Shown: one piece after another, positions 26,892 through 56,221 of the stretch
Numbering within the stretch: the stretch's first letter is position 1
Layout of the letters: each line of letters opens with the position of its first letter
NCBI GenBank assembly: GCA_052327205.1
Contig: CM126206.1
Coordinates: forward strand, 205,158,001-205,222,000
Direction of reading: 5' to 3'
DNA from: Somniosus microcephalus
Taxonomy: Eukaryota
DNA: 64,000 nucleotides
Translations under genes and position numbers: made by a program
Notes under the pieces: model-generated
The model's database searches: none
Told to the model about the DNA's origin: nothing
Seen by the model: only the letters and a program-made list of their open reading frames with translations

Positions 26892-29401
26892 TTACTTTTT
26901 CAGCTTAAATTTTAATGGGGAGAAATGTGCTTCTGGCATGTCATCAGGATGCCAAGACAACTTGCAGACAGCAGGAGCTACTGCTTATTTTATTAAGAAA
27001 TTAACTTAACCAAAGTCATTAAGAATATAGCAACATTGCTCAACTATTAGACGAGGGCCGGATTTTTTTTTTTTTTTTTTTTAAAAACAGGTTGTGCGGG
27101 TGCGGGCTGCACAGCAGGTCGGGAGCCCAAAGATATGAACAGCACGTTCTCCACTACGACTTTTAATTAATGGCCCCCATTAAATTAGTCATATGCGTTT
27201 GCCGGCCCTATTAAATGGTGCGGGTCTGATGACTTCATCAATGACTAATTTCCAGTGGGGATATTTAAAGCAGCCTTGACCACATCACATTTGAAGGTTC
27301 ATGTAGGAGTGTGGAGGGAGTATTGTAGAGGATTGAGTTATTGCTGCAAATTATAAAAATGAGTTTCCAAAGACAGAGGGATGCACCCCGCATTTCGGAT
27401 GCTTCGCTACATAATCCGAAGGAGGGCGTCGGAGCACGCAGGGCGGTCAAGACCTCCCCAAGAGACCAAAAGGGCATGGCTTGAAAATGCTGAGGAGGTC
27501 AGCTTCAGGGATGTCATCAGGAGGACATGGGTACAGTAGATTGAGACATTCAATGATCTCATGAGGTCAGGAAAGGTGGGTGCAAAGCCACACTCACCTT
27601 CATCCTGATGTGCCTGTCACCACATCCCCATCACTCTGCCTTCCCAAGCCTACACCTGTGCATCACTCCTCACACCAACCTACCTTCCAGGTCCACCCAT
27701 CCCTTCACTGTCTATGCACCTACTCACATCCCCATCTGACTAACCACCCCTGACACTCACCCACATCCTCATGCAATCATACCAAGTAACACCACAGAAG
27801 GCCATTTGGCATTGGCACCCCGCTCCCTCAGTCACCCTCTGTAACCCATCCATTCCTTACACTCATGCCATCACTCTCACTCAAACTTCTCTTCTTTCCC
27901 TCCTTGTAGAAGAGAGCCCACAACAGGAGGGAGAGACAGCGAACCGGAAGTGGCCGTCCAGTTTTCAGCAAGTTGACTCCTGCAGAGGAGGCGGCCCTGG
28001 AGGTTTCCGGAGGTGGAGAGCTGCTGGCAGTGGGAGATGGAGAGAGGGGGACCTCTCAGCAACCTGGTGACAGAATTACATCTCATAAAGCCACATGGCA
28101 TACACCAGTCACTCATATGGGGACGGGTGTCAGCAGCCAGTGAATGTTCATCATGTACACAATGGTATCGTTACTGAATCTTAATGTAACATTTCTAAAT
28201 CATCTCTTTACTCTCCCACAGGTTCCCCACTGTCCAGCCGGAGGAGGAAGACAACTCCGCAGAGGGACCTCCAGCCTCTGAGGGTGCACCGTCAGCAGGC
28301 CCAAATGCAACCAGCACCAGCGCAGATACCCACACCTCGGTGGGTCCTATGCGAGGTAGAGTAGTGTTGTGAAGTGTGGGACACCAGGTGACAAGTGAAC
28401 AAGAGCTGATGGTGTTGACAGGGACAGCAGTGGAGACTCCTCGCCAGAGGGCTCAGGACACTCCCAGCTCTGCTCAGCTGCATGCAGACGCTGAGCCGCG
28501 GGGTCCATCCAGAAAGGCGGCGATCCTGGAGGGGCAGTAAGAAGTGCAGGAGGCTCGGACAGGTTTTGCAGCCGCGATGTCTGCAAATGTGCAGAGAATG
28601 GAGGAGTCTATCTCCAACATGAGCAACACCATGTCACAGGTGATGGTGACTGTAGGCTCTTCCATGGAAAGGATGGCCACCTGCATGGAGCAACTAATGC
28701 ACCACCCACATGAGCACATGTTAGCTATGGAGAACAGATGGCAGAGGCTCATAGACCTTCTCTCTAGGAGGGATCTAAATGTAGACTTAGATCCTCATGG
28801 CCCCACTGCTATACAGCAAGGTGCTCTCCGGCTCCTTGCTAGCAGGGAAGTGCAGGTGGTCCACGAGAGGGATGATGGCGAGAGGGTACATGGAAGTGGG
28901 GGCTCATCTCAGAGCACTCCCATTCTCCCCCATTGCCTCCACTCGAGTCAGAGCCCCAGAGGCTTCCTCAGATCCTGATGGTCAAGTCTGCCCCTGCACA
29001 GTTGCAGGAGGAGCAGTCTTCGGCGGGGCCCTCACAGGCTCCAAAAACCAGAGGACGTCCGCCAAAAGTGTCTGATGAGTCGCAGCAGGGAAGTGAGCAG
29101 GCTGCCTCTACCTCTGCTGAAGCCACAGGGGTTGCACCTCGTAGAAGCACGCGTAAAAGAAAAAAGCCAATCCTAAATGCACAACGGTAGCACATGGGTG
29201 TATAAAGAAGTGTTTTTGTTAAGGTTCTGGTACTGTTATCACACATATAAATGTATTTACGTTCACCACTTTCCGGTCATACCCACTGCTGTCTGCTACC
29301 TTGGAAGTGGCTTTGTGAGTTGGAGTGAATGGTGAGTCATCACGTAACCGCAATGGGGGTTAATGTGAAAGGAATGGCTTGGTCACTGAGGGGGGGGGGG
29401 G

Positions 29402-29890
29402 GTGTTGCCCCTCCTCCTCGTCTTCCAGCTGTTGCCCCTCCTCCTCATCTTCCAGCTGTTGCCCCTCCTCCTCCTCGTTTTCCAGCTGTTGCCCCTCCTC
29501 CTCGTTTTCCAGCTGTTGCTCCTCCTCCTCGTCTTCCAGCTGTTGCTCCTCCTCCTTCAGCTGTTGCTCCTCCTCCTCTTCCAGCTGTTGCCCCTCCTCC
29601 TCCTCCTCCAGCTGTTGCTCCTCCTTCTCGTCTTCCAGCTGTTGCTCCTCCACCTCCTCGTCTTCCAGCTGTTGCTCCTCCTCCTCCTCCTCGTCTTCCA
29701 GCTGTTGCTCCTCCTCCTCCTCCTCCTCGTCTTCCAGCTGTTGCTCCTCCTCGTCCTAGTCTTCCAGCTGTTGCTCCTCCTCCTCCTAGTCTTCCAGCTG
29801 TTGCTCCTGCTCCTCTTCCAGCTGTTGCTCCTCCTCCTCCTCGTCTTCCAGCTGTTGCTCCTCCTCCTCGTCTTCCAGCTGCTGCTCCTC
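29402..29890. repeat. Minisatellite (CCT)nCGTCTTCCAGCTGTTGCT in the acidic tail of the Harbinger A transposase
   Basis: About 17-18 variable-length units; the minus strand reads (E)nQQLED, downstream of the CCALH motif. Confidence 0.9.
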
Positions 29891-32504
29891 CTTTTCTTCC
29901 AACAAAGCAGCTCTGGGATGTGCGCCTTGCTCCTCATTCAGCTCTAATCCTCGCTGCTGTGCAGGGCGCAGCATAAGACGATAACTGTGGAGACCCTGGC
30001 TGGTGCGTACTGAAGGGCTCCTCCAGATCTGTCAAGGCATCTGAAGCGCATCTTCAGCATGCCTACTGTTTTCTCTATGACAAATCTGGTGGACATGTGG
30101 CATTCATTACAACGCTCCTCGTCCTCATTGCCTGTCCTCCTCAAGGGTTTCATGAGCCATGTCTTTAGTGGATAGCCCTTGTTGCCAAGCAGTCAGTCGG
30201 TAAGTGTGTTTGGTGGTGCGAAGAGCTGAGAGAGGGTGAACTGGCACAGCACGAATTTGGCACACACATGCATGATGATCTTCCTATGGTTGCAGATGAG
30301 CTGCACACTGAGGGAGTGGAAGCTCTTGCAGTTCACAAACACTCCTGGGTGATGTTGGGGTGCCTTCATGGCCACATGTGCAGTCAATGATGCCCTGCAC
30401 CCGTGGGAAGCCAACCAGGGTGGCAAAGCCGAGCGCTCATTCAGTAACACTGGCTTCATCAGTGGCAAAGTTCACAAAATTAGCTGCCTTGCTAAACATG
30501 GCATCGGTGACCTGGGTGATGCATTAGTGAGCAGCCAACTGTGAGATGCAGCAAATACGAAAGGGAAGCAAGGATAGAAGCAAAAGACAGGAAGGAGAAA
30601 AGCAAAAGTGGCAGTCAGAGAAATCAAGGGTGTAAATCAAACATGGCCAAAGTAAATAATAATTCTAAAAGGTCTAAGTGTTAAAAAAACAAGCTTCAAC
30701 ATCCATGGGTATTCATTATTCAGGAAAGACAGGCAAAAAGGAAAAGGAGGTGGGGTAGCATTGCTGGTTAAAGAGATTAACACAATAGTAAGGAAGGATA
30801 TTAGCTCTGATGTGGAATCTGCATGGGTAGAGCTGAGAAATACCAAGGGGCAGAAAATATTAGTGGGAGTTGTATACAGACCCCCAAACAGTAATGCTGA
30901 GGTTCGGGATGGCATTAAACGGGAAATTAAAGACACGTGTAATAAGGGCACAGCAGCTATCATGGGTGACTTTAATCTACATATAGATTGGGCTAACCAA
31001 ATTAGTAACAATACTGTGGAGGAGGAATTCCTAGAGTGTATACGGGATGGTTTCCTGGACCAATATGTCGAGGAACCAACTAGAGATCAGGCCATCTTAG
31101 ACTGGGTATTATGTAATGAGAAAGGATTAATTAGCAATCTTGTTGAGCGAGGCCCCTTGGGGAGGAGCGATCATAATATGATAGAATTCTTCAATAAAAT
31201 GGAGAATGAAGTCGTTGACTCAGAGACTAGGGTCCTGAATTTAAATAAAGGAAACTACGATGGTATGAGGCGCAAGTTGGCTAGGATGGATTGGGGAATG
31301 TTACTTAAAGGGTTGACGGTGGATAGGCAATGGCAAACATTTAAAGATCGCATGGATGAACTACAGAATTTGTTCATCCCTGTTTGGCATAAAAATAAAA
31401 CAAAAAAGGTGCCTCAACCGTGGCTAACAAGGGAAATTAGGGTTAGCATAAGATCCAAGGAGAGGACATATAAATTGGCCAGAAAAAACAGCAAACCTGA
31501 GGATTGGGAGCAGTTTAGGATTCAGCAAAGGAGGACAGAGAGATTAATTAAGAGGGGGACAATAGAGTATGAGAGTAAGTTTTCAGGGAACATAAAAACT
31601 GACTGTAAAAGCTTCTATAGATATGTGAAGAGAAAAAGATTGGTGAAGTCAAGCGTAGGTCCCTTGCAGTCAGAATCAGGGGAATTTATAACGGGGAACA
31701 AAGAAATGGCAGACCAATTAAATATATATTTGGTTCTGACTTCACAAAGGAGGACACAAATAACCTCCCAGAGATGTCGGGGAACATAGGGTCTAATGAG
31801 AGGGAGGAACTGAATGAAATCAGTATTTGTAGGGAAATGGTGTTGGGGAAATTGACGGGATTGACGGCCGATAAATCCCCAGGGCCTGATAATCTACATC
31901 CTAGGGTACTTAAGGAAGTGGCCCTAGAAATAGTAGATGCATTGCTGGTCATCTTCCAAAATTCTATAGACTCTGGCACAGTTTCCATGGATTGGAGGGT
32001 AGCTAATGTAACCCCACTATTTAATAAAGGTCGTAGAGAGAAAACAGGGAATTATAGACCGGTAATGGGGAAAATGCTAGAGTCCATTATAAAAGATGTA
32101 ATAGCAGAGCACTTGGAAAACAGTGACAGGATCGGACAAAGTCAACATGGATTTACAAAAGGTAAATCATGCTTGACTAATCTACTGGAATTTTTTGAGG
32201 ATGTAACTGGTAGAATAGATAAGGGAAAATCAGTGGATGTGGTGTATTTGGACTTTCAGACGGCTTTCGATAAGGTCCCGATAAGATCCCGCATAAGAGA
32301 TTAGCATGCAAAGTTAAAGCACATGGGATTGGGGGGGTAAGGTACTGACTTGGATAGAGAACTGGTTGGCAGACAGGAAGCAAAGAGTTGGAATAAACGG
32401 GTCTTTTTCCGAGTGGCAGGCAGTGACTAGTGAGGTACCGCAGGGATCGGTGCTAGGACCCCAGCTATTCACAATATATATTAATGATCTAGACGAGGGA
32501 ACTA

Positions 32505-32830: not shown

Positions 32831-34211
32831 TAGATGTAATATCTCCAAGTTTGCAGATGACACAAAGCTGGGTGGGCGTGTGTGCTGTGAGGAGGATGCT
32901 GAGAAACTCCAGTATGATTTGGACAGGTTGGGTGATTATACTGCATCTGCCATGCATCTGCCCAATGTGGATAAATGCGAGATTATCCACTTGGTGGCAA
33001 AAACAGGAAGGCAGATTATTATCTGAATGGCAATAGATAGGGAAAAGGGGGAAGTGCAACGAGACCTGGGTGTCCTTTGTAGGGTTCTCAAAATTCCCAC
33101 ATTCCCCAAAGTTATTAATAAAGGGACCCTGAAGGACAAGTTATTAATAAGGGTACCCTAAATGAAATGGCTTCTGGACCTTGTGGCAGAAACATGCAAG
33201 ATTGAAAGCAGGACCCTGCAAAACAGGTCAAGTTCAAAAGGGCTTTGAAAAACCTGACATGCCTGGGCCTGTGGGAGACTTGTTATTTTTGAAGCCAGAC
33301 AACTAGATAATACAGAATACACATTCTTCATTTTGAAACAAATCAACTCAGGAAAGACTTAATCTTGAACCCATCAAACCTTTGCATAAATAATCGCTTA
33401 CAGTTTAAACTGGCTACCAAGCCAGGAAGATACCGATTCACATTATGCATAACACCGAGACATTAAAGACCATTTAGCAACGGGGCAACCACCCAAAAAG
33501 CAGTTAAAGTGAACGACTATAATCACCTTAGACGAGCCCGCCAAAATTAGACAAAGAACTAGCCCTAATTTGGCGCGCAGGTAACAACCTCCAAAAGAGT
33601 ATAATTGTAGGAAGACAAGCAGGCAAATGCGGGGACGAACTGCTACGGAGATGAGCGAGCAGAGAAGGGCAGTGTGGTGAAGCGTTGGGGACAAGCAGGC
33701 ACACGCTCAGGTCCAGGTTACTCGAAATTCAAAGAAGCAGCATGAAACATCATGGCGAGGAGGCACGGTGGGGCAGGTTCCACCGAAGATGACTAGGCCG
33801 CAACCGCAGCCTTACACAAGGAATGACCACGAGCACCGCGGTAACAAAGGGCGCCGGCTAAACCATACCTTCAGATCATTACCACTGCACAGGTAACGAT
33901 CTAGGCCATTGCGACCGAGCTGACACCAAAGACCGCCAACCGAACCCCAACCGCAACAAAACCTCGACGACCAGACCACCACCGGAAGAACAAAACCCGA
34001 AGTTTTCCACTCTACAAGATAAAGTACCCAGCAAAGACTTTACTCCCTATCTCTAACGGAGAAAAGAGGGTAATTTACTCAGACGAATCCACCACTGCGC
34101 TCTGGGACCATGTGGCGACGACAGGCCCCAAAGGACACAAAGAGCGAACCCCAAAACCGCAACCGGCTTAATCGACAGGATTCGACCTGTCAAGAAACCC
34201 TTATTGGTGAG

Positions 34212-37200
34212 TGTGGTAAACCACTGTTATTGTATATTGTTACCTCTGGGTGGCGCTGTGTACCAAGGCATGCATCAGCTGACTCCGCCCACATGACCAG
34301 GTATAAAGGTGGGGGTTTCGCCGACTCACTTCCTTCTTGGAACCAGCCACCCACGAGAGGCATGCTCTGTTCTCTAGTTAATAAAAGCCTTTTCATCACC
34401 TTCCTGATTCATCGTCTTTTATGGAGTAATTGATAAGCGTATCAATTTTATTAACTAGAAGTAAAATGGCGACACCTGAACAGCAACAACAGCAGGCGTT
34501 GCTGCGAGCCCTCAGACCGGCATGCCTGGACCTCGACCCTCAAGCAGCGGGTTCATCAACCAATTTCGAACACTGGCTGAGCTGCTTTGAATCCTTCCAA
34601 GGCGCCTCCGCCGTGACATCGGAGGAGAACAAACTAAAAGTTTTGACCGCCCAGGTGAGCCCTCAAGTATATACGCTCATCCGGGACGCTACTACGTACA
34701 CGGCGGCCCTCGAACTACTAAAAGGGCAATACACGCGCTGAGTGAACACGATTTACGCCAGACACCTCTTGGGATCCCGCAGGCAGCAACCGGGGGAATC
34801 GGTAGAGGCATTTTTACGGGCGTTACAGACACTCTGCAGAGACTGCGACTGTAAGGAGGTAACGGCTGCGGGGCACGCGGAGGGACTTACTTGTGATGCC
34901 TTCGTCAGGGGCCTCCAGTCCGACTACTCCCGGCAGAGACTGCTCGAAAGCAAGGAGCTCGACCTGAAGACGGCCGTAGCCCTTGCGCTCTCGCTAGATG
35001 CAGCCCACCGAAACCTCGAAGCATACTCACGTAACGGCGCCGCGCCATGGCCATCGCGACCGTGGGACATGGGACCGCCGCCCCCGGCACCAACTGCTGC
35101 AGCGATGTCCCGAAATCAACTGGGACAGCCGCCCCCGGTAAGAACCGCAGCGATGCCCCGTAACCAGGCCCAAAAATGCTATTTCTGTGGCCAGTTAAAA
35201 CACCCTAGAGCGCACTGCCCGGCTAAGACCGCTACCTGCTCGGGCTGCGGGAAGAAAGGCCATTACGCCAATGCCTGCAGGGGGAAACCAGCGAACGCCA
35301 GCAGCGCCGCGTGCGAACCATGGGGGCAGCCATCTTATCTGCCATTTTGTGCACCTCCGGCCGCATGGCCGCCGCCATTTTATCCGCCGCACTCAACCGC
35401 CACTTCGTCTCCGGACTCGACCACCGCCTCGTCGGACGACCATACCGACTCACTAAGCCATACACTGGCCTCCGTTACGCTGGATCAAGCCCTCCCTCAT
35501 CATCTATCCAGCTCCATGATGGATATCACGGTAAACGGCCGCGCCACCACTTGCCTAATCGACAGCGGGAGCACAGAGAGTTTTATTCACCCAGACACGG
35601 TACGTAGCCACTCCCTCACGGTCCTGCCGACGCGCCATCGGATTTCTATGGCGTCCAAGTCCCAGTCAATGGACGTCGGCAGCTACTGTGTGGTGACCCT
35701 TTCGGTTGGGGGCACAGAATATAAAAATTTTAAACTTCTAGTCCTGCCCCGTCTCTGCGCTGCCGTGCTGCTAGGGTTGGATTTTCAGTGCCACCTTAGA
35801 AGTGTCACATTAGCATACGGTGGACCCCTCCCCCCACTCCTCGCATATCTGATATGGTCAACCAGATTGCGCAATACAAAGTATTCTCCACCATTGACCT
35901 TAAGTCAGCATACCACCAGCTCCCCATCCGCCATGAGGACCGCCAGTATACTGCCTTCGAGGCGAACGGCCGCCTCTACCACTTCCTTAGGGTTCCCTTC
36001 GGCGTCACCAACGGGGTTTCGGTCTTCCAAAGGGAGATGGACCGGATGGTTGACGAGAACGCGCTGCAGGCCACCTTTCCCTATCTGGATAACGTCACCA
36101 TCTGTGGCCACGACCAGCAGGACCATGACGTTAATCTAGAAAAATTCCTCCGTACGGCCCAACGGCTGCACCTAACGTACAATAAAGAGAAATGTATGTT
36201 TCGCACCAAACGCCTCGCCATTCTCGGCTGCGTGGTGGAGAACGGAGTCATCGGGCCCGACCCCGACAGAATGCGCCCCCTAATGGAGCTACCCCTCCCC
36301 CACTGCCAAAAAGCACTGAAGAGATGCCTGGGGTTTTTCTCCTACTATGCCCAGTGGGTGCCCCACTATGCAGACAAAGCTAGACCCCCTCATCAAATCC
36401 ACCTCCTTCCCCCTGACACCAGAGGCGTGTGCAGCCTTCACTCTTATCAAGAGCGATATCGCGAAGGCCACAATGCACGCAGTGGATGAGTCGATCCCCT
36501 TCCAAGTGGAGAGCGATGCATCCGACTTCGCCCTAGCTGCGACCCTTAACCAGGCGGGCAGACCCGTGGCCTTTTTCTCAAGGACCCTCCAGGGCCCCGA
36601 GACCCGACACTCCTCTGTTGAAAAGGAGGCCCAGGCTATTGTGGAAGCGGTGCGTCACTGGAGGCATTACCTGGCCGGAAAACGGTTTACCCTGCTCACT
36701 GACCAGCGTTCAGTAGCTTTTATGTTTAATAATAAGCAGAGGGGCAAAATCAAGAACGACAAGATCTTGAGGTGGAGAATCGAACTCTCCACCTACAATT
36801 ATGATATCTTGTACCGGCCCGGGAAACTAAATGAGCCCCCAGACGCCCTATCACGTGGTACATGCGCCAACGCGCAGGTTGATAGACTGCAGACCCTCCA
36901 CAATGACCTCTGCCACCCGGGGGTCACCAGGTTCTTCCATTTCATCAAATCCCGTAACCTGCCCTACTCCATCGAGGAGGTCAGGACCATGACCAGGAAC
37001 TGCCAAATCTGTGCCGAGTGCAAACCGCACTTTTATAGGCCGGACAGAGCAAGCCTGATCAAGGCCACTCGCCCCTTCGAGCGCCTGAGCGTCGATTTTA
37101 AAGGGCCCCTCCCCTCCTCTGACCGCAACGTGTACTTCCTCAACATAACTGATGAGTACTCCCGTTTCCCGTTTGCCATCCCTTGCCCAGACATGACCAG

Positions 37201-38223
37201 TACCACGGTCATCAAATGTCTGAATGACCTCTTCGCCTTGTTCGGGTTCCCTAGCTATATACATAGCGACAGGGGCTCATCTTTCATGAGCGACGAACTT
37301 CGGCAGTACCTGCTAGCGAGAGGTATTGTTACGAGCAGAACCACCAGCTACAACCCCCGGGGGAACGGCCAGGTGGAAAGAGAGAACGCGACGGTTTGGA
37401 AGGCCGTCCTCTTAGCCTTAAAATCTAAGGGCCTTCCGACCTCTCGCTGGCAGGAGGTCCTCCCTGCGGCGCTCCACTCCATCCGGTCACTGCTTTGTAC
37501 TGCCACTAATGCCACCCCTCATGAGCAAATGTTCGTTTTCCCCAGGAAGTCCACATCGGGAACCTCGCTACCGGCATGGCTGACTTCTCCTGGGCCCGTC
37601 CTACTGCAGAGGCACGTAAGGACCCATAAAACGGACCCCCTGGTCGAGAGGGTGCGCCTCCTACACGCCAACCCCCAGTATGCCTGGGTGACATACCCAG
37701 ACGGGCGGGAGGACACGGTCTCCATACGAGATCTCGCACCCTCGGGTACCCCTGAACTACCACCGTTATCCCCCACCACCCCTCCCAATCCAACCCCTGT
37801 AGACGACATGCCGGAGCCCCAGGACCCTTCGTTGACCACCCAGACACCAGATCCGACGTTGGATGCTGCAACACCGCCGCCGCCGCCACCACGACGATCA
37901 GGACGTCAGACAAGGCCTCCTGATAGACTTAACTACACGAACTTGTAGTACCCTTCACCCCGCCGGACTTAATTTTAAACAAGGGGTGAATGTGGTAAAC
38001 CACTGTTATTGTATATTGTTACCTCTGGGTGGCGCTGTGTACCAAGGCATGCCTCAGCTGACTCCGCCCACATGACCAGGTATAAAGGTGGGGGTTTCGC
38101 CGACTCACTTCCTTCTTGGAACCAGCCACCCACGAGAGGCATGCTCTGTTCTCTAGTTAATAAAAGCCTTTTCATCACCTTCCTGATTCATCGTCTTTTA
38201 TGGAGTAATTGATAAGCGTATCA
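34212..38223 (+). mobile_element. Gypsy-1 (Mag-like) LTR retrotransposon inside the provirus 5' LTR
   Basis: 233-bp LTRs (34212-34444, 37991-38223) with one difference found by eye; GTGAG TSD; twin zinc knuckles, DSG protease, YLDN RT, RNase H, HHCC/DDE integrase; PPT AAGGGG. Confidence 0.93.
34466..37948 (+). pseudogene. Gypsy-1 gag-pol, disrupted
   Basis: In-frame TGA at 34739-34741, internal deletion at ~35840 removing the RT N-terminus, frameshift at ~36385. Confidence 0.85.
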
Positions 38224-38575
38224 GTGAGCATAGTCCCTGGCCCCTTATAGCACAATTTAGTTAGATATTGGGGGTGGGACAAGGGTAGGGGGTTTAATCA
38301 TGTGATTTTTCCCTCGATGTACCATGTGTTCCCCATTCTTAATTAAGTGTGTCTTTTATATGCCTGTAACTATTCCAGTAATTTTCAGTGTTGTAATTTT
38401 ATTGTGCCTTTAATAAAATACAGTTTTCTTGCATCAAACCAGTTGTCTACTCCAATTTGTATCGCAGCCTGTACCTAAGTCCGGAGTCTAGAACCACAGG
38501 GGTGTGGGAGCGATTCGAACCACTCAAAAACAGTCAGGGGCAAGCTGACTGCGTACACCAAAACCCCTACAGAAA

Positions 38576-40288: not shown

Positions 40289-41009
40289 CTAGAGCCAGCG
40301 CAGCCTATTTACCTGTGTTCGCTTCAGTACGACTTATGGAAGAGACCCCTCGTTGAGATGGAGGTAGAAAAGGTAAAGGGGACCTATCTGTTGGACACGG
40401 GGGCATCATGCACCGTGATCCATTCAGATAACCCCACCACCTCAGCTCCATCTAGCGGGGTCCCATACAGCCTGTCGGGATTCACGGGTAAAGAACAGGC
40501 AGGCTCATTTTCCATCCCGCTGTCCATTCGTTTAGGAACACTCCGCTCTAAGTGGACCTGTATCCTAATGAAGTGGGAACTGGAGGGTGGAAAAGGGATC
40601 CTGGGAGCCGACTTTATTGTGGGCCACGGGATCCTAGTGGATTTAAGGAATCTCTGCCTATGGGGGGCAAGTACAGGAAAGGAAGGCGGAGTAGTAGTAA
40701 TCCCAGGGAAAGAGGGGAAGGGGACCCTGTGCACCATGAAGTCTAAAGAGGGTTATAACCTCGAGCTCATGGTCAGTAATACCCCAAATGAGTTCCAGGC
40801 ATCTGTGCGAGCCCACCAAGCCACATTTGCCACACACAAGCACGACTGTGGGAGGGTCAACGGGTTAGAGGTCAGCGTAGACGGGGACCCTATGGCCCGA
40901 CCACAAAAACAGTATAACTTCCCCAGGGAAGCGGAGCCAGACATGGAAGCAGCCATGTCCTCCTTAGTGCAACAGGGGGTCCTGAGACCGATAGCCACCC
41001 ACGTAAACT
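40289..41009 (+). pseudogene. Provirus protease and RT N-terminus; rest of pol deleted
   Basis: LLDTGAS and GILGADF protease motifs, then PQKQYNFP...LVQQGVLRP..VN. RT homology stops at ~41009 with no RT core, RNase H or integrase recognisable. Confidence 0.85.
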
Positions 41010-43677
41010 GTGAACTGGAAAGTTCACAGACCGCACAGGAGGGGGGCAATGGCTCGTGTTAAAAAACCACCAGCCAGAAAACCCCCACCAGCCAAAGTCC
41101 CTAGAAGGTCCCCACGAACGCCACGGCCAAAGAAACCGTGGTCACCGGCTCCCCAGTTTAAACGGGCAGCCTCTCGTCAGGGATCGGTCTGAGGACAGAG
41201 GTTCCCAGCCAGCAGCCGCAGGCTGCGAGGGACCGAAAGTACAGGACAGGGCAGCCACACCGAAGGGAGTAGTGTGCTGCAGCCCGAACAGGGATTAGCC
41301 TGGCCGCCCGGAGACGGGCGGCAGATGTACATAGTTTCTGTAATGTAATTTGGTTATTGTTAAGTTTGGGTGTTTAGTTTAATTTTAAACAAGGTGATTG
41401 GTAGTTTAAATATTATTGTTTTAGTGTTTGTATTGTGTCAAGGTCACAAGACTCGACTATGCTTCATCCAAGCCAGAGAATCTTCTCGGGACCTGGCTAT
41501 ATGCTCGTGTCTCTTTACAGAAGGGATTTCGGGATGAAGGGGGGCATACTCCTACTCGCCCCGATAGGAATGAGCACAGGGAAGCGAGGTGATGTGGAGG
41601 ACTCCCACATCTATGGGTGCTCAGGAGAGAGAGCACCGGTTGTGACTGCTGGGGGCAGCGAACGAGGCGTGGAGGAGCTCGCCATCTATTCCCATGAGGG
41701 AAGATGGCCAGGGTGGCTGGGATCCAACTCCACCCGGTACTCCAGCCAGACCGGGTTCACCTATGGGGAGGCCTCCCTCCCCTGCCCCAGCATACAGGTG
41801 GTGGCCACACGGGTTGGGGTCATTGAGGGGAAACGCGTGTGCCTGACTTGCAGAGTACAGATTCCACTGGGAAGGTGGTGGTGGCTCAGAAAGCTGAGCA
41901 AAGACTTGGGGGACCGTACAGCTGACTGGGTACGACTAGGGAACGACACCTACCGGACGGTCACAGGGACCCGAGGGGGGACTAGTGTATGCTGGGATAA
42001 GTGGTGGGAGTCGGAACAGGGAATTTATGTCTGCATGTGGGGGTCGCAAAGGGCCTGCCCCACAGGCATATCCATCATCTTCTCCGCATCATGGCAGGAT
42101 AAGGGGAAGGGGGTGGAATGGGATTCCCACCTACACACTTGCATAGTCCCACGCTCCCCAGCCCCAGTTAAAGCCACTGAACTAGTGGCACGCGCCCGAA
42201 AGCCCCTGCCCATGACCCAGGCAGCAAGGACACACAGAGAGGGGTGCCCTGCCACCACCAAGGGACCAGGGAATGGGCTGGTACTAGTGCCGACGGAAAA
42301 GGTGCTATACCAGGGAGTACACGACGCGGTAGCTTCCGTGATTCTGAACCTTACCGAGGTACACTTACCTGAGTGGTGCCCCAAAGAGACAGAACAGCTA
42401 TACCAGGCCCCGTTAAGAGAAATGTTTAGGAAATTCTACGAGTTCGATTTTGCCAATGTAGACAAGACAGAACTGTCCACTACACACACTGAGTATTTTG
42501 GTAGTGCGGGGAGACAAAGAAGGGGAACCTGGAATGATGTTTTCACAGCGTTTAACACAGGATCCTCTGTTATAAACAGCCTGGATGACATAGTATTGCA
42601 GACACAGATAAACAGTTTGAACACACAATTGCGAAAAATCTTAATGGATGAAAATACAGTAGTAGGCTCAGAGTTACACGAGGACCAGGCTATGACGTTC
42701 CATTTAAAAGAGATCATTGCTGAGCTGGAGAAGCACGCAAAGACTGTAAATGCCCTCATAAAAGAGAGGACAGCAATGCTTCAGATCAGGCTGCACAGAA
42801 CGAGGTGTGCGTACTGTATGGGGCATGGTTGCTGGGCGAGGGCCGCAGTAACCTGGAGGATTTAAAACAGGGTTTAGTCCCCTCCTGGATCAGCAACAAG
42901 CACCTCGCAGCCCTCCACTGGGCTTCTGAGGCCTACCCTGTCCCAGTAGATTGTGGGCGCTCTAACCACACTATCATGGGGATAGTAGTGAGGATGCCGG
43001 TCATGGGGGGGACAGCCCGACCTGCACCGGTATACAGGGTAGAGAACATTGGAGTCATTCAAGGGGGTGCACACATCCGTTTCACAGTGGTCCCACCTTA
43101 TCTCAAAGTGGGAGCACGCAATAACAGGTACTGACCTCTAGGGGTGCCGGAGCCGGGGAGCACACATAATACTATGTCCCCAGCACTTGAACGCCTATTC
43201 AAAACCACAGTGCAGGTTTAAAGCTGCTGGCGCAAAACCTATAAACTGTACCATGGAGGTAATGGCACAAGACCATGTTCCCCCACAGGTAGCATATATA
43301 GGAGGTGGGACATATTGGCCTAGAAATTCAGTATAGCCACGTTTGGGGCACTACAGCCAGGCGTTCGCTAAATTTAGCGCCCGGCGCAACTTAGCGCCAC
43401 CTTTGCCGATATTCAGTTGCATCGCCCCAAGAGGTTGCTGCTGCGCTAAAGCAGGCGATGCAAGACTATCATAAGGAGCTAAACCAGCGTGCCAAGGCGC
43501 TAACACCGAGGGCGGGTGCAGCGCAGGTGCGGCAAGTTGCTGATTGAAGGCAGACACGCTGGCGCCGGTCAGCTCTTAAAGGGGGAGGGTGGACTTGTTT
43601 GGCTGCCACGCCCTGCACACTGCAGCCCTGAATCAAGGCCTGAACATAGTTGCTTCAACAGGTCAACGCCCACGACT

Positions 43678-46600
43678 ATGGAGAAGGCTAGGGAGCGAGC
43701 GCAGCACTTCAGCGAGGGTGCCCTGAAGCTACTGGTTGGCACAGTGGAGCGCAGGCGACTTGTCCTCGTCCCCGATAGTGGCAGGAGGCCGCTGCCCAGC
43801 GAGTATAGAAAAGCCTGGAGGGAGGTGGCAAACAGGGTGACCTCCAACAGCATGGTTGCCAGGACTCCTGTGCAATGCAGAAAAAAGTTCAATGACCTCA
43901 CTCGGGTTATCAGGGTGAGTGCCCTTTCCAGTATCCTCCTCATCCCTGCATGTGCACCTCACTTTATGGCCAAAGGGACCTGAAAGCCCCAATGCCCAGC
44001 CCTCATCCAACAACTACGGGACTCTCATGAAAATCACTTGCACATTCAGCACTTTACACACTGTCAGGGCTATTCCACCATGGGAGGCAGTGCAGGCAAG
44101 ATCAGGGCTTGACACTGTCAGGGCTATTCCACCATGGGGGGCAGTGCAGGCAAGATCAGGGCTTGACACTGTACTTAGAGGCCGTCCTTTCTCTTGCAGG
44201 GCAAGCTGGCCCACAATCGCAGGCAGCAGCGACGGACCGGGGGTGCCGTCCTGACCTCAAAGAGCTCAGCGACCTGGAGCAGTGTGTGGAGCGCATTATG
44301 GCAGGCCGGCTGATTGGCCCTGTCGCCAGTGGAGATGCCGACCCTGTTCTGGACAGCAATGGTAAGGTCATAACCTTTTTGACCGCTCTTTCCACTTGTG
44401 CCTCACACCAGCATCCTTTGCCACTATCAAACCAATGCAGTGCATAGCAGCACTCATGCCTCCCTCGCTGCCGCCCTGTCCTCACTCTAAAGCAACTCTT
44501 GTGCCTCCCTGCTTTCAAATGCTGAATCGCCAGGTGAGGAGGCGGGCCCTCAAGCTGCCACTGTCAGTGATTCTGAATTCGAGGAGGAGGAAGAGGAAGC
44601 TGGCCCATCAGTGCCACCCTCAGCCGAGGCAGCCCATGGTCATGATGGGGACACGTCTTCCCTGGAAGGGAGCAGGGGGGGGGAAGGGTCCGAGGAGAGT
44701 GAAGCTCCGGGGCCCAGTGGGCTGCAGCAACGCGGGAGGGGTGGGGAAGCTCGGTGGCCTTCTCCCCGGAGGGTGAGTGCGGCCTCCACTCCTGCTACGG
44801 TGAGCGCAGAGGAGGTGCGGCTCCTTGGTGAAATGGGCGCCCAGGCTGAGCGCAGGCACACTGAGCTCATGGCTGCAGTGGCAAGGATGCCTGACTCCAT
44901 AGAGTCACTGGCAAGGAGTGCTCAGGAATTCGGGGCAGCACAGGCCAGGAGTCTGCAAGAATTCAGTGCAGCACAGGCAAGGAGTCTGCAGGACTTCGCG
45001 GCAGCACAGGCGGCTTCCAGCCAAGTACTCAGTCGTACCGTGCATTCACTGGCTGGTCTGATGCAGACACAGATCAGGGCCACACGGGCACTAACTGCTG
45101 CCACCCTCGCTGGATCGGCCAGGCATCGCCGGGGCCCTCGCCGCGCCACAGCAGCCTGTGCTTCAGCAGATTGCTGCGCATGCTGCAGTGCTGGGCCGTG
45201 CGAGTGCCAGTGTATCAGCCGACCAGGGAGTGCCTGTGCTCTGTCAGGTTGGCAGCATTCCTGCAGCCATAAGAACATAAGAAGTAGGAGCAGGAGTAGG
45301 CCATAAGTCCCCTCGGGGCTGCTTCGCCATTCAACAGGATCATGGCTGATCCGAATCTAGACTCACGTCCACTTCCCTGCCCTCTTCCCGTAACCCCTAA
45401 TTCCCTTATCTGCTAGGAAACTGTCTATCTCCGTTTTAAATTTATTTAATGTTGCAGCTTCCACAGCTCTCTGGGGTAGCAAATTCCATAGATTTACTAC
45501 CCTCTGAGTGAAGAAGTTTCTCCTCATCTCAGTTTTGATAGGGCAGCCCCTTATTCTAAGATTATGCCCCCTAGTTCTAGTCTCACCCATCAGTGGAAAC
45601 ATCCTCACCGCATCCACCCGATCAAGCCCCCTCACAATCTTATATGTTTCGATAAGATCGCCTCTCATTCTTCTGAACTCCAATGAGTAGAGTCCCAACC
45701 GACTCAACCTTTCCTCATACGTCAACCCCCTCATCTCCGGAATCAACCGAGTGAACCTTCTCTGAACCGCCTCGAGAGCAAGTATATCTTTTCTTAAATA
45801 TGGAAACCAAAACTGCACGCAGGATTCCAGGTGTGGCCTCACCAATACCCTGTATAACTGCAGCAAGACTTCCCTGTTTTTATACTCCATCCCCCTTGCA
45901 ATAAAAGCCAAGATTCCATTGGCCTTCCTGATCACCCGCTGCACCTGCATACTAACTTTTTGTGTTTCATGCACCAGGACCCCAGATCCTTTTGTACTGT
46001 AGCACTTTGCAGTTTCTCTCCATTTAGATAATAACTTGCTCTTTGATTTTTTTCTGCCAAAGTGCATAAACTCACACTTTCCAACATTATATTGCATCTG
46101 CCAAATCTCTGCCCACTCACTTAGCCTGTCTATGTCCTTTTGCAGGTTTTTTATGTCCTCCTCACTCACTGCTTTCCCTCCCATCTTTGTATCGTCGGCA
46201 AACTTGGATATGTTGCACTCAGTCCCTTCCTCCAAATCGTTAATATAGATTGTAAAGAGTTGGGGTCCCAGCACTGACCCCTGCGGAACACCACTGGTTA
46301 CTGATTAACAGCCCGAGAACGAACCATTTATCCCAACTCTTTGTTTTCTGTTAGATAGCCAATCTTCCACCTATGCCAGTATATTACCCCCAATCCCGTG
46401 ATTTTTTATCTTGATCAGTAATCTTTTGTGTGGAACCTTGTCAAATGCCTTTTGGAAGTCCAAATACACTACATCCACTGGTTCCCCTTTATCCACCCTG
46501 TATGTTACGTCCTCAAAGAATTCGAGCAAACACTGTCACTCCTCCACTGCAGCTGCCACCACCCGTAGGACAGACTGCTGCCGCCCAAGCAGAGTTGGAG

Positions 46601-48208: not shown

Positions 48209-50027
48209 CCATTGCAGCCCCCATTATATGTGGCAACTCAAGGCTATGGCACTGAAAGTTAAATCCAAGTGCAAAGCTCTGGCCTGAAGCCAGAAGTACC
48301 TGTGCGAGCGCCGAGTCAAACCAGAAAGCTCTCTCCCTTTGTCTCTCTCCAAATATCCGTCTCTCACAAAGAAGGATTGCCACAAAATGGCTACCACTTA
48401 TAATGCAGGAGGAGTCCCCTTTAAATAGCACCCCCCGCAGCGACTGGGAACCATTCCCCTCTACCAGTCGCTGGGGGCGCCAGCCGCACAGAAGGGCGGC
48501 GCCACTGAAGTTCCGGTTCGGGGCGCACCAAGGGCGTTGCACCATGAAATGACGTCAGGATCTGCGCGCGCAGCTGAGCGGGCGCTGCGGTTTAGTGCCG
48601 CCGCTAAATCTTGAGTGAAGTTCGCGAGAGGCGCAGATCGCGCCGCGCCCGGGCGCTAGCCGCTTAGCACTCCACTTCTCCTCCTCCTAAGGCGCTAACG
48701 GCTGGCGCTAACAACTGAATTTCTAGGCCATTGTGTCACCACAGGTGCGCCCCACTACCAGCATGGACAGCATAGCTGGTGTCTGGTAAGTGACAGCAGT
48801 TTCTGCTTTAAACCCGAGGCAGAAGCTCAAGTGGCCCAGGAATGAATTGGCCCCATTCCTGAACCCTCTACTGTTCACCTCACTGTAAAAGTGAATTTTA
48901 CCAACCTGCAAATATATGTAGCACATTTCGGCTACGAAATCCCCCCTCTACCAGAACATCTTACCAAGTTACTAAAAGCAGTAGTCATCTCACAAAAACA
49001 TTTCTACACGTTGGAGCAGAAGACAGTAGAGATAGGGGCCAAGATATTGAATATTGTAGTTCCACCCTGGTGGGACATCTTTGAAAATATAGAGGTCCTT
49101 TCATGAATTAGAATGGCTTCCCACATCCTCGTGGTTTGCCAGCTGGGAATAGTATTGTACCTAGTGTGCACTCAGTGCAAGGGAAAAGGCCAAATACTAG
49201 AATTCTGAAACCAAAGGACTTGGAAGGAGCATTATGTTAAGGTGGAGGGAGATACACCTGTTTGAATCTTTTTATTTTATATTTCTGAATAAAGATTGTT
49301 GTTTTTTTGTGTTTTTGTTATTTTTAATAAAGATTTTGATGTGTTATTTTTAATAAAGATGTGTGTGTACCAAGTGGTGCAGGGGTGTTGGAACCCCTCC
49401 ATGCTTGGATGTATGTAAATAACTGTATTCTGCCTATGTATGCTTATGTACACTACATTTTTAGAGAATGGGAAATGTGTGTGTCATGGGATGTTAGATA
49501 GGTAATTACAGGGAAGGTTGGCTATGGAGGGTCGGGAATTTTGCTCAACTTTGTAAGTATGATACTTAAAGCGAGTTTTAGTATCAACAGGAGGGAGTGT
49601 AGGGCTCTCAAAATTCACACATTCCCCAAAGTTATTAAAAAAGGGACCCTGAAGGACAAGTTATTAATAAGGGTACCCTAAAGGAAATGGCTTCTGGACC
49701 TTGTGGCAGAAACATGCAAGATTGAAAGCAGGACCCTGCAAAACAGGTCAAGTTCAAAAGGGCTTTGAAAAACCTGACATGCCTGGGCCTGTGGGAGACT
49801 TGTTATTTTTGAAGCCAGACAACTAGATAATACAGAATATGCATTCTTCATTTTGAAACAAATCAACTCACGAAAGACTTAATCTTGAACCCATCAAACC
49901 TTTGCATAAATAATCGCTTACAGTTTAAACTGGCTACCAAGCCAGGAAGATACCGATTCACATTATGCATAACAAACACCGAGACATTAAAGACCATTTA
50001 GCAACGGGGCAACCACCCAAAAAGCAG

Positions 50028-50784
50028 GGGGATAGAATATAAAAATAGGGAGGTATTGCTTCAGTTGTACAAGGTATTGGTGAGACCGCACCTGGAATAC
50101 TGCGTACAGTTTTGGTGTCCATACTTAAGAAAGGACATACTTGCTCTCGAGTCAGTACAAAGAAGGTTCACTCGGTTAATCCCAGGGATGAGGGGATGGA
50201 CATATGAGGAGAGGTTGAGTAGATTGGGGCTCTACTCATTGGAGTTCAGAAGAATGAGAGGCGATCTTATTGAAACATATAAGATTGTGAAGGGGTTGGA
50301 TCGGGTGGATGCGGGGAAGATGTTCCCGATGATGGGTGAAACGAGAACTAGGGGGCATAGTCTTAGAATAAGGGGCTGCTCTTTCAAAACTGAGATGAGG
50401 AGGAACTACTTCACTCAGGGTGGTAGGTCCATGGAATATGCTGCCCCAAAAAGCTGTAGAAGCTACATCATTACATAAATTTAAAACAGAAATAGACAGT
50501 TTCCTAGAAGTAAAGGGAATTAAGGGTTACAGGGAGCGGGCAGGAATTTGGACACGAGTCTAGGTTCGGATCGGTCATGGCCCTGTGGGTAGCGGAGCGG
50601 GCCCTGGGGCCGTGTAGCCTGATCCTGCTCCTATTTCGTGTGTCTAATTCTGTTAGATTCAGGAGATGGTTCTGTGATAGTGGATTGGCGGTTAGGATCA
50701 GATCAGCCATGATCTTATTGAATGGCGGAGCAGGCTCGAGGGGCCGATTGGCCTACTCCTGCTCCTATTTCTTATGTTCTTATG
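50028..50784 (+). mobile_element. 5'-truncated CR1 in the 3' LTR
   Basis: ORF 50056-50478 RT tail; the segment is absent from the 5' LTR at the same position. Confidence 0.9.
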
Positions 50785-51320
50785 TAAGGTGAACGACTAT
50801 ATGTAAGGTGAACAACTATAATCACCTTAGACGAGCCCGCCAAAATTAGACAAAGAAGTAGCCCTGATTTGGCGTGCAGATAACAACCTCCAAAAGAGTA
50901 TAATTGTAGGGCCACCGGTAGGCAGACAAGCAGGCAAAAGTGAGGATGAACTGCTACGGAGACGAGCAAGCAGAGAAGGGCAGTGTAGTGAAGCGTTGGG
51001 GACAAGCAGGCACACGCTCAGGTCCAGGTTACTCGAAACGCAAAGAAGCAGCACGGAACATCGTGGCGAGGAGGCACGGTGGGGCAGGCTCGACCGAAGA
51101 CGACTAGGCCGCAACCATACACGAGGAACGACCACCGCGGTAACAAAGGGCCGGGTAAACCATACCTTCAGATCATTACCACTGCACAGGTAACGATCTA
51201 GACCACCGTGACCGAGCCGACACCGAAGACCGCCAACCGAACCCCAACCGCAACAAAACCTCGACGACCAGACCACCACCGGAAGAACAAAACCCGAAGT
51301 TTTCCACTCTACAAGATAAA

Positions 51321-54300
51321 TGTAGTGTCCGTGTGTAGATAAAGACACTGAAGACAGGAGTTGGTTCATAGGTATTTACTAAGCAAGCCTGGGGGGGGGG
51401 GGGGGGGGGGGGGGTTCTAAAGGATATACACAATACACAGGCTTATATAGCCCAAGTGGCAATTACCGGCATTACGCACACCTGGGGCTCTTAAAGGCAC
51501 ATACACCATAATTCCTCCCCTTCTAGCTAACTAGTACATCATATTTTAAGTAATTATTAATTACATGTTATATGCAAAATAATATACATTGCTGTATTAA
51601 TTAATTATAAGTTAGTCTCTCAGGAGGATTCCTGACTCGGTCCGGATAACGCCTCGGGGGTGTAGTAGTTTCTGGTGGTGTAGTAGGTTCTTCTGGCAAG
51701 GCCGATTCGGCTTGAAGGCCAGTGTCGGGTTCATCGGGCTCCAGTATCACCGGATCGGAGGTAGATATGGGTATCTCTACTTCATCGTTAGATGTATAGA
51801 GTGGTGGTGTATGTTGTCCCTTTTCGGATGACTTGATGATTTGGTCAGCATGGCGCCTTATTATGCTGTCTCCGATGTCCACGGTATACATCAGTGGTCC
51901 TAATCGTGTGCAGATAGTTCCAGGCTGCCATTTCTCGGTACGGTAGTCCCGGGCCAAAACCGGTTGGCCTATCTGGAAGGCCCTAGTTGGCCTTTCATTC
52001 ATGCCCTGAAACTGCCGGTTCTCCACGTCCCTTCGGATGTTGGGCTTGACCAAATCCAGCCGGCATCTTAGGTTTCTATTGTAGAACATCATGGCGGGAG
52101 TTTGGTTAGTAACCATATGCGTTGCATTCCTATATGCAAATAAGAAGTTATCCACCTTGTGCTGAAGTTTTATGTCTTCATTACTCATGGCCTTGATGGC
52201 CTTCTTGAAGGTCTGGACAAACCTTTCAGCCAATCCATTGGTGGCGGGATGGTATGGGGCGGACGTGTAGTGCTTTACCCCATTGTTCTTTAAGAACTTT
52301 CTGAATTCTTCGGACACAAATTGCGGTCCATTATCAGAACATATCTGCTCCGGCAGCCCATTCCTGGCAAATATGGTCCTTAATACTGTGATGGTTTTTT
52401 CCGTGGTGGTGGAGGACATCTTTATTACCTCCGGCCACTTGGAGTGTGCATCAACTGCGATTAAGAACATTGAGTCCATAAATGGACCAGCAAAGTCGAT
52501 GTGCACCCTTTGCCAGGGAGATGAGGGCCACTCCCATGGATGTAGAGGGGCCTGTGGCAGAGCATTTTGGACCTTCTGGCATCCTAGGCAGCTCTTGGTC
52601 ATGTCTTCGATGTCTCCATCGATACCTGGCCACCATACAAACGCCCTAGCTAGGTTCTTCATTTTCACTCCACCCAGATGCCCCTCGTGAAGCTCCTTTA
52701 GCACTTTATCCTGGAGTTTGGGTGGAATCACCACTCTGGATCCACACATCAAGGTTCCTCGGCACACTGACAGCTGTTCTCTTCTTTGCGAGAATGCTGG
52801 CAACAGTGGTTCGCCATGTGCTGGCCATCCCTTCACTGTTAAATCATAGACCCGTGAGAGAGTAGGGTCATTTCTTGTCTCCCTTTCAATGGCAGAATTT
52901 GTCACCGGTAGACATTCCACTATGGTAGAGTGGAATATCTCTACTGGGTCTACTGTAGGTGCCTCTTCTATCGTTGGCAATGGTAGGCGTGATAAACCGT
53001 CAGCATTCCCATGCTGTTTTGACCCTTTGTATTCAATGTTGTATTGGTGTGCCCCTAGAAAAAGGGACCACCTCTGTAGTCTTTGTGCCGTCATAATGGG
53101 GACACCTTTTTTAGGGTTGAATATGGAGATGAGGGGTTGATGGTCAGTCAGCAAGGTAAATTTTTGTCCGTGTAGGTAATGGTTGAATTTCTTCACTCCC
53201 CATACCAGGCTGAGTGCTTCCCTGTCTATTTGGGCATAGTTACGCTCAGCTGAGTTCAATGAGCGTGACGCAAAAGCTATCGGCCGTTCCGAGCCATCAG
53301 GGAATCTATGGGACAATACCGCTCCTATGCCGTAAGGGGATGCATCGCACGCCAGTCTGATTGGTAGTGATGGGTTGTAATGAGCCAAAATTTTCTCGGA
53401 TGTGATTAAGTCTTTACATTTATGGAAGGCACGTTTACAGTCTTCGTTCCATTTCCAAATCACTCCTGTCTGTAGAAGATCATTAAGAGGGTGTAGAATA
53501 GTTGATAAGTTCGGTAAAAATTTATGATAGTAATTTATTAATCCCAGGAATGACCTTAATTGTGAAACATTTTCAGGTGCTGGGGCTTTTATAACTGCTT
53601 CAATTTTTTCAGGTGACTTATGCAACCCTTCCTTATTAATTATGTGGCCACAATATGATGTCTGATTTTGGAAAAATTCGCACTTGGGGCGATTTGCTCG
53701 TAGGCCCCGTTCTTTCAGCCTAGTGAGCACCTGCTCCAAATTGGCAAGGTGCTCGTTGTCGTTTTCTCCTGTTATAAGGATGTCGTCTAGGTAGCATGGA
53801 GTCCCCGGAATCCCTTGCAGGACTTGCTCCATAGCTCTTTGCCAGATAGCTGGAGCTGATGCTATTCCAAAAACCAGTCGATTGTACTGGTACAGGCCTT
53901 TGTGTGTGTTTATTGTGAGATACTTTTTAGAAGTCTCCTCAACCTCCATTTGTAGATATGCCTGTGCCAAGTCAATTTTTGTGAAACGTTTCCCTCCGGA
54001 TAGTGAGGCGAAAATATCTTCTATCCTCGGAAGAGGATACTGTACCGTGTGAAGGACCGGGTTTACAGTCACCTTAAAGTCCCCACAGATGCGAATTTTT
54101 TTCTGTTCCTCAGAGTTATTTTTCAATGTTTTTTTCATGACTGGAATGATGGGTGTTGCCCATTCGCTCCAATCTATTTTGGATAATACGCCTGCCTTTT
54201 CCAAATTCTTCAGCTCTGCCTCGACTGCCGGACGCATTGCGTATGGCACCGGTCTTGCCTTAAAAAATTTTGGAATTGCTGTATCTTCCACTTTTATTGA

Positions 54301-56221
54301 GGCGGTGATGCCTTTCAAGGTTCCTAGTTTCTCTTGAAACACTTCTTTGGCGTTGGCCAAGATGCCTTTTAATCGTTCAGGTATGATGTCATCATTGTTT
54401 TTTTCCTTACTGGTCACCGTCAGTGCCTGAATGGAGTGCCAGTCTAAACGTATCTTCCTTATCCATTCACGTCCCAACAACGGTGGACCACCATCTTGTA
54501 GAATGTATAAATACAACTTTTGTATTTCTTTGCCGTTGTATACCACAGGCACCCTTATTTTTCCTTTGGGGTAGACTTTCTGCCCCGTATATGTTTTTAA
54601 GATAATGGATGTGTCTTTTAGAGGTATATGCGAAAATAGCCTCTCGTAATCTCGTCGATTTATTACGGTTAGAGCTGATCCTGTATCTAGCTCCATTTTA
54701 ACTGGGGACCCTGCTATTGTGAGGGTAACCCAAATGGTTTGGTAATCCTCTTTGGCAAGTACATTATGTAATTTGAGACAGCTTAGTCTCTTGTTTCCGG
54801 AGTCGCTATCGCTATTCTGGTCTTCGGAGCTATTGTCCGTCACCATTTGTACCTTCCTGTACTTTTCTTTATTGATTTTTTGTTTTCTGTCAGTGGATTT
54901 ATTTTGTTCAGATTGGCATACCCGTGCAATGTGTCCAATCTTACCACATTGCCTGCATGCTTTGCCCTTGAACCAGCAGTCCCTCTGGTTATGGGTGGAT
55001 CTGCCGCAGCGATAACATCTTCCGAACTCCTGTGTCATTTTATGGGTGCCGAAGTCCTGTGTCTCTTGTTGTATCTCTGCAGCTCCTTTTGCTGCTGCTT
55101 CGTATGATACAGCCATACTGAAAGCTTTGTCCAATGTTAAATCTTTTTCAGAAAGCAGTCTTTTTTGTGTTCCTTCACTTAAGAGACCGCAAACAAATTT
55201 GTCTCGAAGATAATCCGATAGTCCTGCTCTGAATTGGCAGTACTTTGATAGCTTTCTTAATTCGGTTAGGTAATCAGCGTTACTTTCATTCTTGTGTTGA
55301 TTTCTCTTGAAGAACTTGAATCGTTCCGCTATCAGCAGCGGTGTTGGGTTTAAATGCTCCTGCAGGGTATCAACAATTTCTTTAAAAGTCTTGTCCTTTG
55401 GTTTGGCTGGAGTGATTAAATTTCGTAACAGCCCGTATGTCTTCGCGCCCATTAAGTTCAGAAGTACTGAAGCTTTTTTTTCATCTGTTATTCCATTTGC
55501 AGTGCAATAAACCTCTACTCATTCCACGTATGTGGTCCAATCTTCTATTTCGCCATCAAAAGCCTCAATATTACCAGATTTAGGCATTTCAGAAAAGATA
55601 TGGCGCTTCCCGCGCTTTTTTTTTTCTCTCTGTAGCAACGATATGGCGCTTCCCGCGCTTTCCCGCCGCTGCTACCGATAACAACGCTGTTTTAATGTGG
55701 TTTCCGTTTATTCACTGTTGGAGACTCGTTCCCGACGGAGGTCTAAACGCTGACCTGCTTGCTGCGCCAGCCGTCTCTCGAGTGCACCCTCCCAGTCCGT
55801 TATTGCTTGCCTCCGATTTCGCTGCCTGTCTCAGCTGTAGAGCCCACCGCTGGAGCTCCAGCCTGACGCCCAGGAAGGATTAGCGCAGAACCTGTCACCA
55901 GCTTGGCCAGCTGGTGAAACCACAGTTTCTCTTACTTCCTTGAGTCTTCTGGACGCTGGAGGAATCGATGTCCTTGAGGTGCTGCCGAATTGCAGGTAAG
56001 TCCGTTTCCACTTCGTCGCCACTGTAGTGTCCGTGTGTAGATAAAGACACTGAAGACAGGAGTTGGTTCATAGGTATTTACTAAGCAAGTCTGGGGGGGT
56101 TTCTAAAGGATATACACAATACACAGGCTTATATAGCCCAAGTGGCAATTACCGGCATTACGCACACCTGGGGCTCAAAGGCACATACACCATAATTGCT
56201 CTTAAAGGCACATACACCACA
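51321..56221 (-). mobile_element. Gypsy-2 (Mag clade) LTR retrotransposon in the 3' LTR
   Basis: LTRs 51321-51510 and 56023-56221; ATAAA TSD; PBS TGGCGACGAAG (tRNA-Ser-like) at 56011-56021; PPT AGAAGGGGAGGAA. Confidence 0.93.
51601..55587 (-). pseudogene. Gypsy-2 gag-pol, single frame with one premature TGA
   Basis: ATG at 55587 (MPKSGNIEAFD), TGA at 55519-55521, then an open 1283-aa ORF with twin knuckles, DTGS, YLDD, RNase H and integrase. Confidence 0.9.

Follow-up and report, generated by a model that had tools for sequence, protein, structure and literature searches.

Co-varying LTR and leader arms point to self-primed reverse transcription in an animal lineage of Ty3/Gypsy retrotransposons

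In Gypsy-1, a retrotransposon of Somniosus microcephalus, the position just past the 5' LTR does not open with the TGG of a tRNA primer-binding site, and instead holds an exact complement of a segment of the element's own LTR. The locus therefore raises the question of how minus-strand DNA synthesis is primed in this element and its relatives. Gypsy-1 was analysed within a stretch of 64,000 nucleotides, referred to here as the window, which also contains a second element, Gypsy-2, with an ordinary primer site. Taken together, the evidence indicates that a large animal Ty3/Gypsy lineage very probably primes minus-strand DNA with its own RNA in the manner of Tf1, using a predicted cut and a predicted start site within the LTR.

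Gypsy-1 and its complementary arms

Gypsy-1 is a Ty3/Gypsy LTR retrotransposon, identified by direct LTRs with TG...CA ends, a target-site duplication, a polypurine tract, the PR-RT-RH-IN order and a Ty3-like RT. Its features, and the internal control in Gypsy-2, are as follows, in window coordinates.

34212-38223, + strand: Gypsy-1, whole element, LTR to LTR
34207..34211, + strand: 5-bp target-site duplication, left; the same 5-mer stands at 38224-38228
34212..34444, + strand: 5' LTR, 233 nt, TG...CA ends, with CA at 34443-34444
34302..34307, + strand: TATAAA, not conserved in relatives
34373..34386, + strand: arm 1, candidate self-primer; cut predicted after 34386 from Tf1
34376..34386, + strand: 11-nt core of arm 1, opening with an initiator-like A-G-T; W-G-Y is in register in 17/19 families
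34380..34385, + strand: AATAAA within arm 1
34387..34445, + strand: inter-arm loop (rest of R, U5 and 1-nt spacer), predicted to template strong-stop DNA, starting with a conserved RCC
34446..34459, + strand: arm 2, at the primer-binding-site position, without TGG; 1-nt spacing as at the Gypsy-2 TGG site
34466..37948, + strand: gag-PR-RT-RH-IN, broken
35177..35278, + strand: twin CCHC zinc knuckles with a 6-residue spacer, a spacing shared with six relatives and Gypsy-2
36082..36093, + strand: RT catalytic motif YLDN in place of YxDD
37977..37990, + strand: polypurine tract
37991..38223, + strand: 3' LTR, in which arm 1 recurs at 38152-38165
38224..38228, + strand: 5-bp target-site duplication, right
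56006..56023, - strand: internal control, the Gypsy-2 LTR end (56023), 1 nt, then an ordinary TGG-type primer site

Over their 233 nt, the two Gypsy-1 LTRs differ at one base. The target 5-mer occurs singly at a paralogous empty site near 56403 of the window. The coding region is disrupted by a stop at 34739-34741, by the loss of ~94 codons near 35842 and by a frame change near 36370-36390; the copy is dead, and was probably mobilised in trans. Among named proteins, the nearest belong to rays and a catshark (69-83% identity), and named hits to the lineage extend further to cnidarians, molluscs, a crinoid and nematodes. Neighbours in the Atlas carry nothing more specific than the generic label 'K02A2.6-like'. 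For one relative, L001, the top solved-structure match is Ty3 Gag-Pol (E 5e-58).

Gypsy-1 and Gypsy-2 are each nested in one of two ~1.5-kb repeats (33078-38571 and 49598-56755; 89-98% alike), with insertion points ~190 nt apart in repeat coordinates. The two repeats resemble LTRs belonging to a larger element, with a site of TGGCG type near 38575 and a match to a retroviral-type protease at 40289-41059. An ORF within this larger LTR element (43504-43980) encodes a Myb/SANT-like domain, a domain typical of Harbinger-type transposons. Elsewhere in the window, a degenerate array of 9-30 nt repeats (29329-29976) is open in three frames.

At the end of the 5' LTR, a single A is followed by arm 2, TTTTATTAACTAGA (34446-34459), which is the exact 14-nt reverse complement of arm 1 (34373-34386). 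The earlier note had placed a 14-nt LTR complement one base past the LTR, and it lies precisely there; a match of this length is reached by none of 20,000 shuffles of the Gypsy-1 LTR (maximum 13) and by none of 19,650 random 233-nt stretches of the window (maximum 10). The duplex of the two arms appears in the predicted fold of Gypsy-1 RNA, with a modest folding energy (z -2.6 from 34373, -0.9 from 34376 and -1.0 from 34332).

Co-variation of the arms across relatives

Relatives were gathered with an alignment of 48 RH-IN sequences, and the loci examined comprise the best 80 of 398 confirmed metagenome loci together with 50 from genome bins. Two scans of viral_contigs returned no relative. Loci L081-L083 and L084-L130, filed in bacterial genome bins, are animal-type Gypsy elements, several of them near-complete with terminal repeats, and L081-L130 are apparently eukaryotic contamination. 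In L004, a change close to the 3' end of arm 1 is common to both LTRs (3806-4011 and 7670-7866) and missing from arm 2. Such an LTR-only change is expected if new LTRs copy arm 1 from the 3' RNA, and it is not diagnostic.

A blind scan anchored on gag identified a gag start at 29 loci, of which two are short of upstream DNA and 27 were scored. In 20 of the 27, an exact inverted repeat, 10-19 nt long, ends beside the gag start. Among the seven misses, L026 is positive on inspection, L023, L038 and L080 are decayed members of positive families, and L061 and L062 carry deletions that leave a partial duplex; in L020 no duplex is seen. Inspection also reveals the duplex in L057 and L013, and duplexes with differing letters occur in ~20 families.

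The search for compensatory changes between the arms, suggested in the earlier note, was run with anchors blind to pairing to avoid circularity: arm 1 was located via the following AA|RCC, and arm 2 via CA plus one base. The final arm 2 anchor is the first CA-N-TTT after arm 1, an earlier rule having misplaced L006 and found none for L026. Sixteen families were run and two without the motif (L019 and L081) were dropped, leaving 14 whose independence is incomplete (L005, L006 and L009 are related, and two families come from one assembly). With these anchors, Watson-Crick pairs form at 137 of 140 sites across positions 4-13, a sum reached in 0 of 50,000 permutations. Arms paired across families average 5.55 of 10, with 2 of 182 combinations reaching 10, and slid registers pair at 20-44 of 140. 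Up to four pair types occupy one alignment column, and two-sided swaps separate close relatives (L001 from L007, and L005 from L006). Pairing extends to -12 and -13 in 13 of the 14 families, to -14 to -16 in nine, and beyond in three to four.

With junctions located by eye, all 19 families pair at 11-13 of 13 positions. In six control elements from other clades, the best result of a 400-nt search is 7-9 pairs, and TGG stands at the site in four; these controls are without the duplex. The proposed absence of a TGG-type primer-binding site is borne out, with no TGG after the Gypsy-1 5' LTR and none at the start of the site in any of the 19 families. The pairing of arm 1 with arm 2 is a real, conserved and co-varying feature.

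Signals around the duplex and the route of priming

On its LTR-proximal side the duplex terminates in AAA. A hairpin of at least 4 bp opens at the first base past arm 1 in 10 of 14 families, compared with 1.27 expected (0 of 1,000 shuffles); this local hairpin is absent in the Gypsy-1 copy, where a longer-range stem is predicted instead. In 17 of 19 families an initiator-like W-G-Y occupies the positions 11-9 nt ahead of the predicted cut; it resembles the initiator consensus TCAKTY given in the available text of PMC3601003. A start at W-G-Y would yield an 11-nt primer, the length described for Tf1 in the accessible part of PMC7175516. Since pairing runs further upstream, a start exactly at -11 cannot account for everything; the simplest reading is that starts are heterogeneous, from -11 to -16, and that arm 2 is recopied from the primer in each cycle. 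The earlier note had cautioned that the TATA at 34302, ~70 nt upstream, might separate the primer from the transcript 5' end. This caveat carries little weight given the W-G-Y so near the predicted cut and the presence of an upstream TATAWA in Gypsy-1 alone among 14 families, and the TATA is rejected as a feature of the lineage.

Two ordinary RNA-seq runs contain sense-strand gag reads derived from related subfamilies; only 29 of 781 reads in one run, and 30 of 1156 in the other, match at 99% or better. Neither run shows a start cluster at either candidate site, nor is one expected in data of this type, and two contig sets likewise point to no start site. Possible 3' ends at 34397-34401 (11/18 and 8/28 molecules) coincide with the point at which subfamilies diverge, and hence were not used. 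The reads also carry arm-2 variants at 34454 and 34458, and a 1-nt LTR deletion in 33/127 and 41/160.

In the proposed route, genomic RNA would begin within the 5' LTR, probably a few bases from the start of arm 1. Arm 1 would then pair with arm 2 at the primer-binding position over 13-14 bp, the pairing recorded by co-variation. A cut would follow just past the conserved AAA, at the junction of the duplex with the adjacent stem, probably made by the element's own RNase H, as in Tf1. RT would extend the new 3'-OH over ~59 nt of U5 and R before jumping to the 3' R. Plus-strand synthesis would subsequently copy the primer and thereby rewrite arm 2, so that the arms would stay matched after any change in arm 1. 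The overlap of AATAAA with arm 1 would follow from a short R region.

The pairing could also be produced or used in other ways. The primer might be arm-1 RNA from elsewhere, supplied by the 3' LTR copy, a dimer partner RNA or short solo-LTR transcripts, a route that would still be independent of tRNA. Co-variation is blind to cis versus trans, and pairing reaches 2-7 nt upstream of the initiator-like motif, a segment that a 3' copy with its U3 would supply. The loop between the arms, 23-67 nt across families, and the junction hairpin nevertheless favour a local fold, and a 3' end acting as primer would be expected to strip the R needed for strand transfer; such a source is unlikely. Slightly less probable again is a mainly regulatory duplex, hiding the 5' poly(A) signal or closing the leader beside the gag start while priming occurs otherwise. 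In 18 of 19 families the gag ATG and the start of arm 2 are indeed separated by 14-35 nt, and a canonical AATAAA or ATTAAA hexamer falls within the 5' LTR arm in 10 of 19, but the other nine keep the duplex without it; in L021 the hexamer is present only in the 3' LTR. Masking of the poly(A) signal, put forward in the earlier note, thus cannot be what maintains the duplex and is rejected as a conserved role. Arm 2 also sits exactly 1 nt past the LTR end, in the primer-site register of Gypsy-2, and no other primer site is present.

Priming at arm 2 by a fragment of a host tRNA, with the LTR match secondary, has a precedent in the half-tRNA priming of Copia elements described in the available portion of PMC6317226. 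It is very unlikely here, as arm 2 varies by family in step with its own LTR, which a fixed set of tRNAs would not track, and no site opens with TGG; on these two grounds tRNA priming is rejected. ARAGORN detects 0 tRNAs in the 64-kb window. A chance match in AT-rich DNA, or a duplication private to the Gypsy-1 copy, would suit the AT-rich composition of both arms and the modest z-scores of this copy, but is scarcely credible beside the shuffling result and the many families with different letters, and chance is refuted by the 14-family co-variation test. Self-priming, as the earlier note proposed, is strongly supported by the co-variation of the arms across the lineage, with the cut and the start site placed by prediction.

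Placement of the lineage and comparison with known systems

The lineage was placed in an unrooted 30-row RT-RH tree, whose rows are drawn from the 59 of a quick tree; one further row was excluded for its short length. Gypsy-1 RT is represented by P0006, and the chromoviruses sampled are plant and algal only. The lineage forms a single branch (100/100) on a long stem (1.6-1.8 changes per column), and the plant and algal chromoviruses are set apart (100/98). Its sister is Gypsy-2 plus P0224, at 98/97 in the 30-row tree and 72 in the quick tree, in a region of long branches that holds no named Mag or SURL reference. The Gag of the lineage aligns with that of Gypsy-2 (27% identity, E 3e-18). Twin CCHC knuckles and a single gag-pol ORF are taken here as Mag-type features, and the label 'Mag-type' for Gypsy-2 likewise presumes such features in place of a named reference sequence. 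No Pfam chromodomain match is found in the window, and neither Chromo nor SH3_Tf2-1 is matched in the window or in seven long relative ORFs, in a search that detected positives in 3 of 23 reference proteins. The description of Gypsy-1 as Mag-like and without a chromodomain therefore fits. The further suggestion that self-priming arose independently stands in part: the best tree places the lineage outside the chromoviruses, but forced union with them is not rejected (p-AU 0.227) in a tree whose chromoviruses are those of plants and algae. An origin independent of Tf1/sushi is favoured, not proven.

The RT of the lineage carries a further peculiarity. YxDN occurs in 46 of 55 and 68 of 94 readable lineage proteins (two overlapping hit lists), and in 2 of 85 other Gypsy proteins, both out-of-clade. 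In L006 and L008 the motif stands in an intact ORF of an element whose LTR overlaps are identical, and the duplex also occurs in members with YLDD (L010, L013, L019, L021 and L083). Since DD and DN members both have the duplex, the two traits are untied, and YxDN is rejected as a requirement for self-priming. In Ty3, D214N retains reduced polymerase activity and loses transposition, according to the available text of PMC5371799; the searched literature yielded no paper on a natural YxDN motif. That young, intact copies carry the motif naturally poses a puzzle of its own for RT chemistry. The broadest claim is that a widespread, Mag-related animal Gypsy lineage, unpublished as such, evolved self-priming independently of Tf1/sushi, with an architecture of its own (a primer helix of 13-19 bp that ends in AAA, stacks on a cut-site hairpin and overlaps the initiator and poly(A) signal) and an RT mostly transposing with the YxDN that is lethal for Ty3 transposition. 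Taken whole, this claim is evenly balanced between holding and failing.

Only for Tf1 has self-priming been demonstrated; predictions cover the chromovirus relatives of Tf1 and a single plant Copia lineage. If it operates in a large non-chromovirus animal lineage, freedom from host tRNA priming would have arisen more than once, and the finding bears on the question, raised in the accessible text of PMC3601003, of which came first, hairpin or tRNA priming. The model predicts the cut position, the primer length and the strong-stop length. LTR finders based on the primer-binding site would miss or downgrade the lineage.

Within the Mag lineage (A, B and C clades; SURL), comparison is through Gypsy-2, which shares the knuckle spacing, an alignable Gag and the single ORF. 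Gypsy-2 differs in its TGG tRNA-type site and its YLDD, whereas the self-complementary lineage stands on a long stem. Cigr-1 of Ciona intestinalis, in the description by Simmen and Bird in 2000, reportedly has ~245-bp LTRs, a single ORF of ~1,210 aa and an urchin-type Gag; relatives of Gypsy-1 have LTRs of 164-233 bp and ORFs of 1,190-1,250 aa. The lineage may be the Cigr-1 clade, judging from the agreement with these sizes and Gag type, and the primer site of Cigr-1 may already be mentioned in that original description. The Cigr-1 clade extends to molluscs and annelids. In the available part of PMC6238403, Cigr-1 is listed under Mag in a reference table, and its clade is reported in cephalopods and a gastropod, groups that also yield hits to the Gypsy-1 lineage.

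For plant TAR (Copia) and Tcn1 (Gypsy), self-priming is predicted from an LTR complement of at least 10 nt located 0-5 nt past the LTR, as set out in the accessible portion of PMC6317226. The test is of the same kind as that applied to the Gypsy-1 lineage, and extends predicted self-priming beyond Tf1/sushi, but concerns plants and Copia or chromovirus elements. The searched literature, with subscription papers and Repbase reports outside its scope, describes self-priming for Tf1/sushi, Tcn1 and Copia TAR and for no Mag-related animal lineage.

The closest functional parallel is provided by Tf1. Its first 11 bases pair with the primer-binding site and RNase H cuts between bases 11 and 12 (available text of PMC7175516), and the duplexes flanking the primer helix are required (available text of PMC10085805). 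Tf1/Tf2 of Schizosaccharomyces pombe, Tj1 and the Tf1/sushi chromoviruses likewise have no tRNA site and a primer position that complements a 5' LTR segment, together with a stem flanking the duplex and the Ty3/Gypsy domain order, as far as described in the accessible parts of PMC7175516, PMC10085805 and PMC4600332. The Gypsy-1 lineage differs in its duplex of 13-19 bp, which ends in AAA and often overlaps the poly(A) signal, in a leader of only 14-35 nt, and in forming one local hairpin where a three-duplex 'pretzel' is described for Tf1 in the available sources. It differs from Tf1/sushi as well in its twin CCHC Gag without a chromodomain or Tf2-type SH3 match (window and seven long relative ORFs), in the YxDN of most RTs, and in a branch separate from the sampled plant and algal chromoviruses. 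In conclusion, the lineage most likely works like Tf1 but lacks the chromodomain that serves as a criterion of the Tf1/sushi group.
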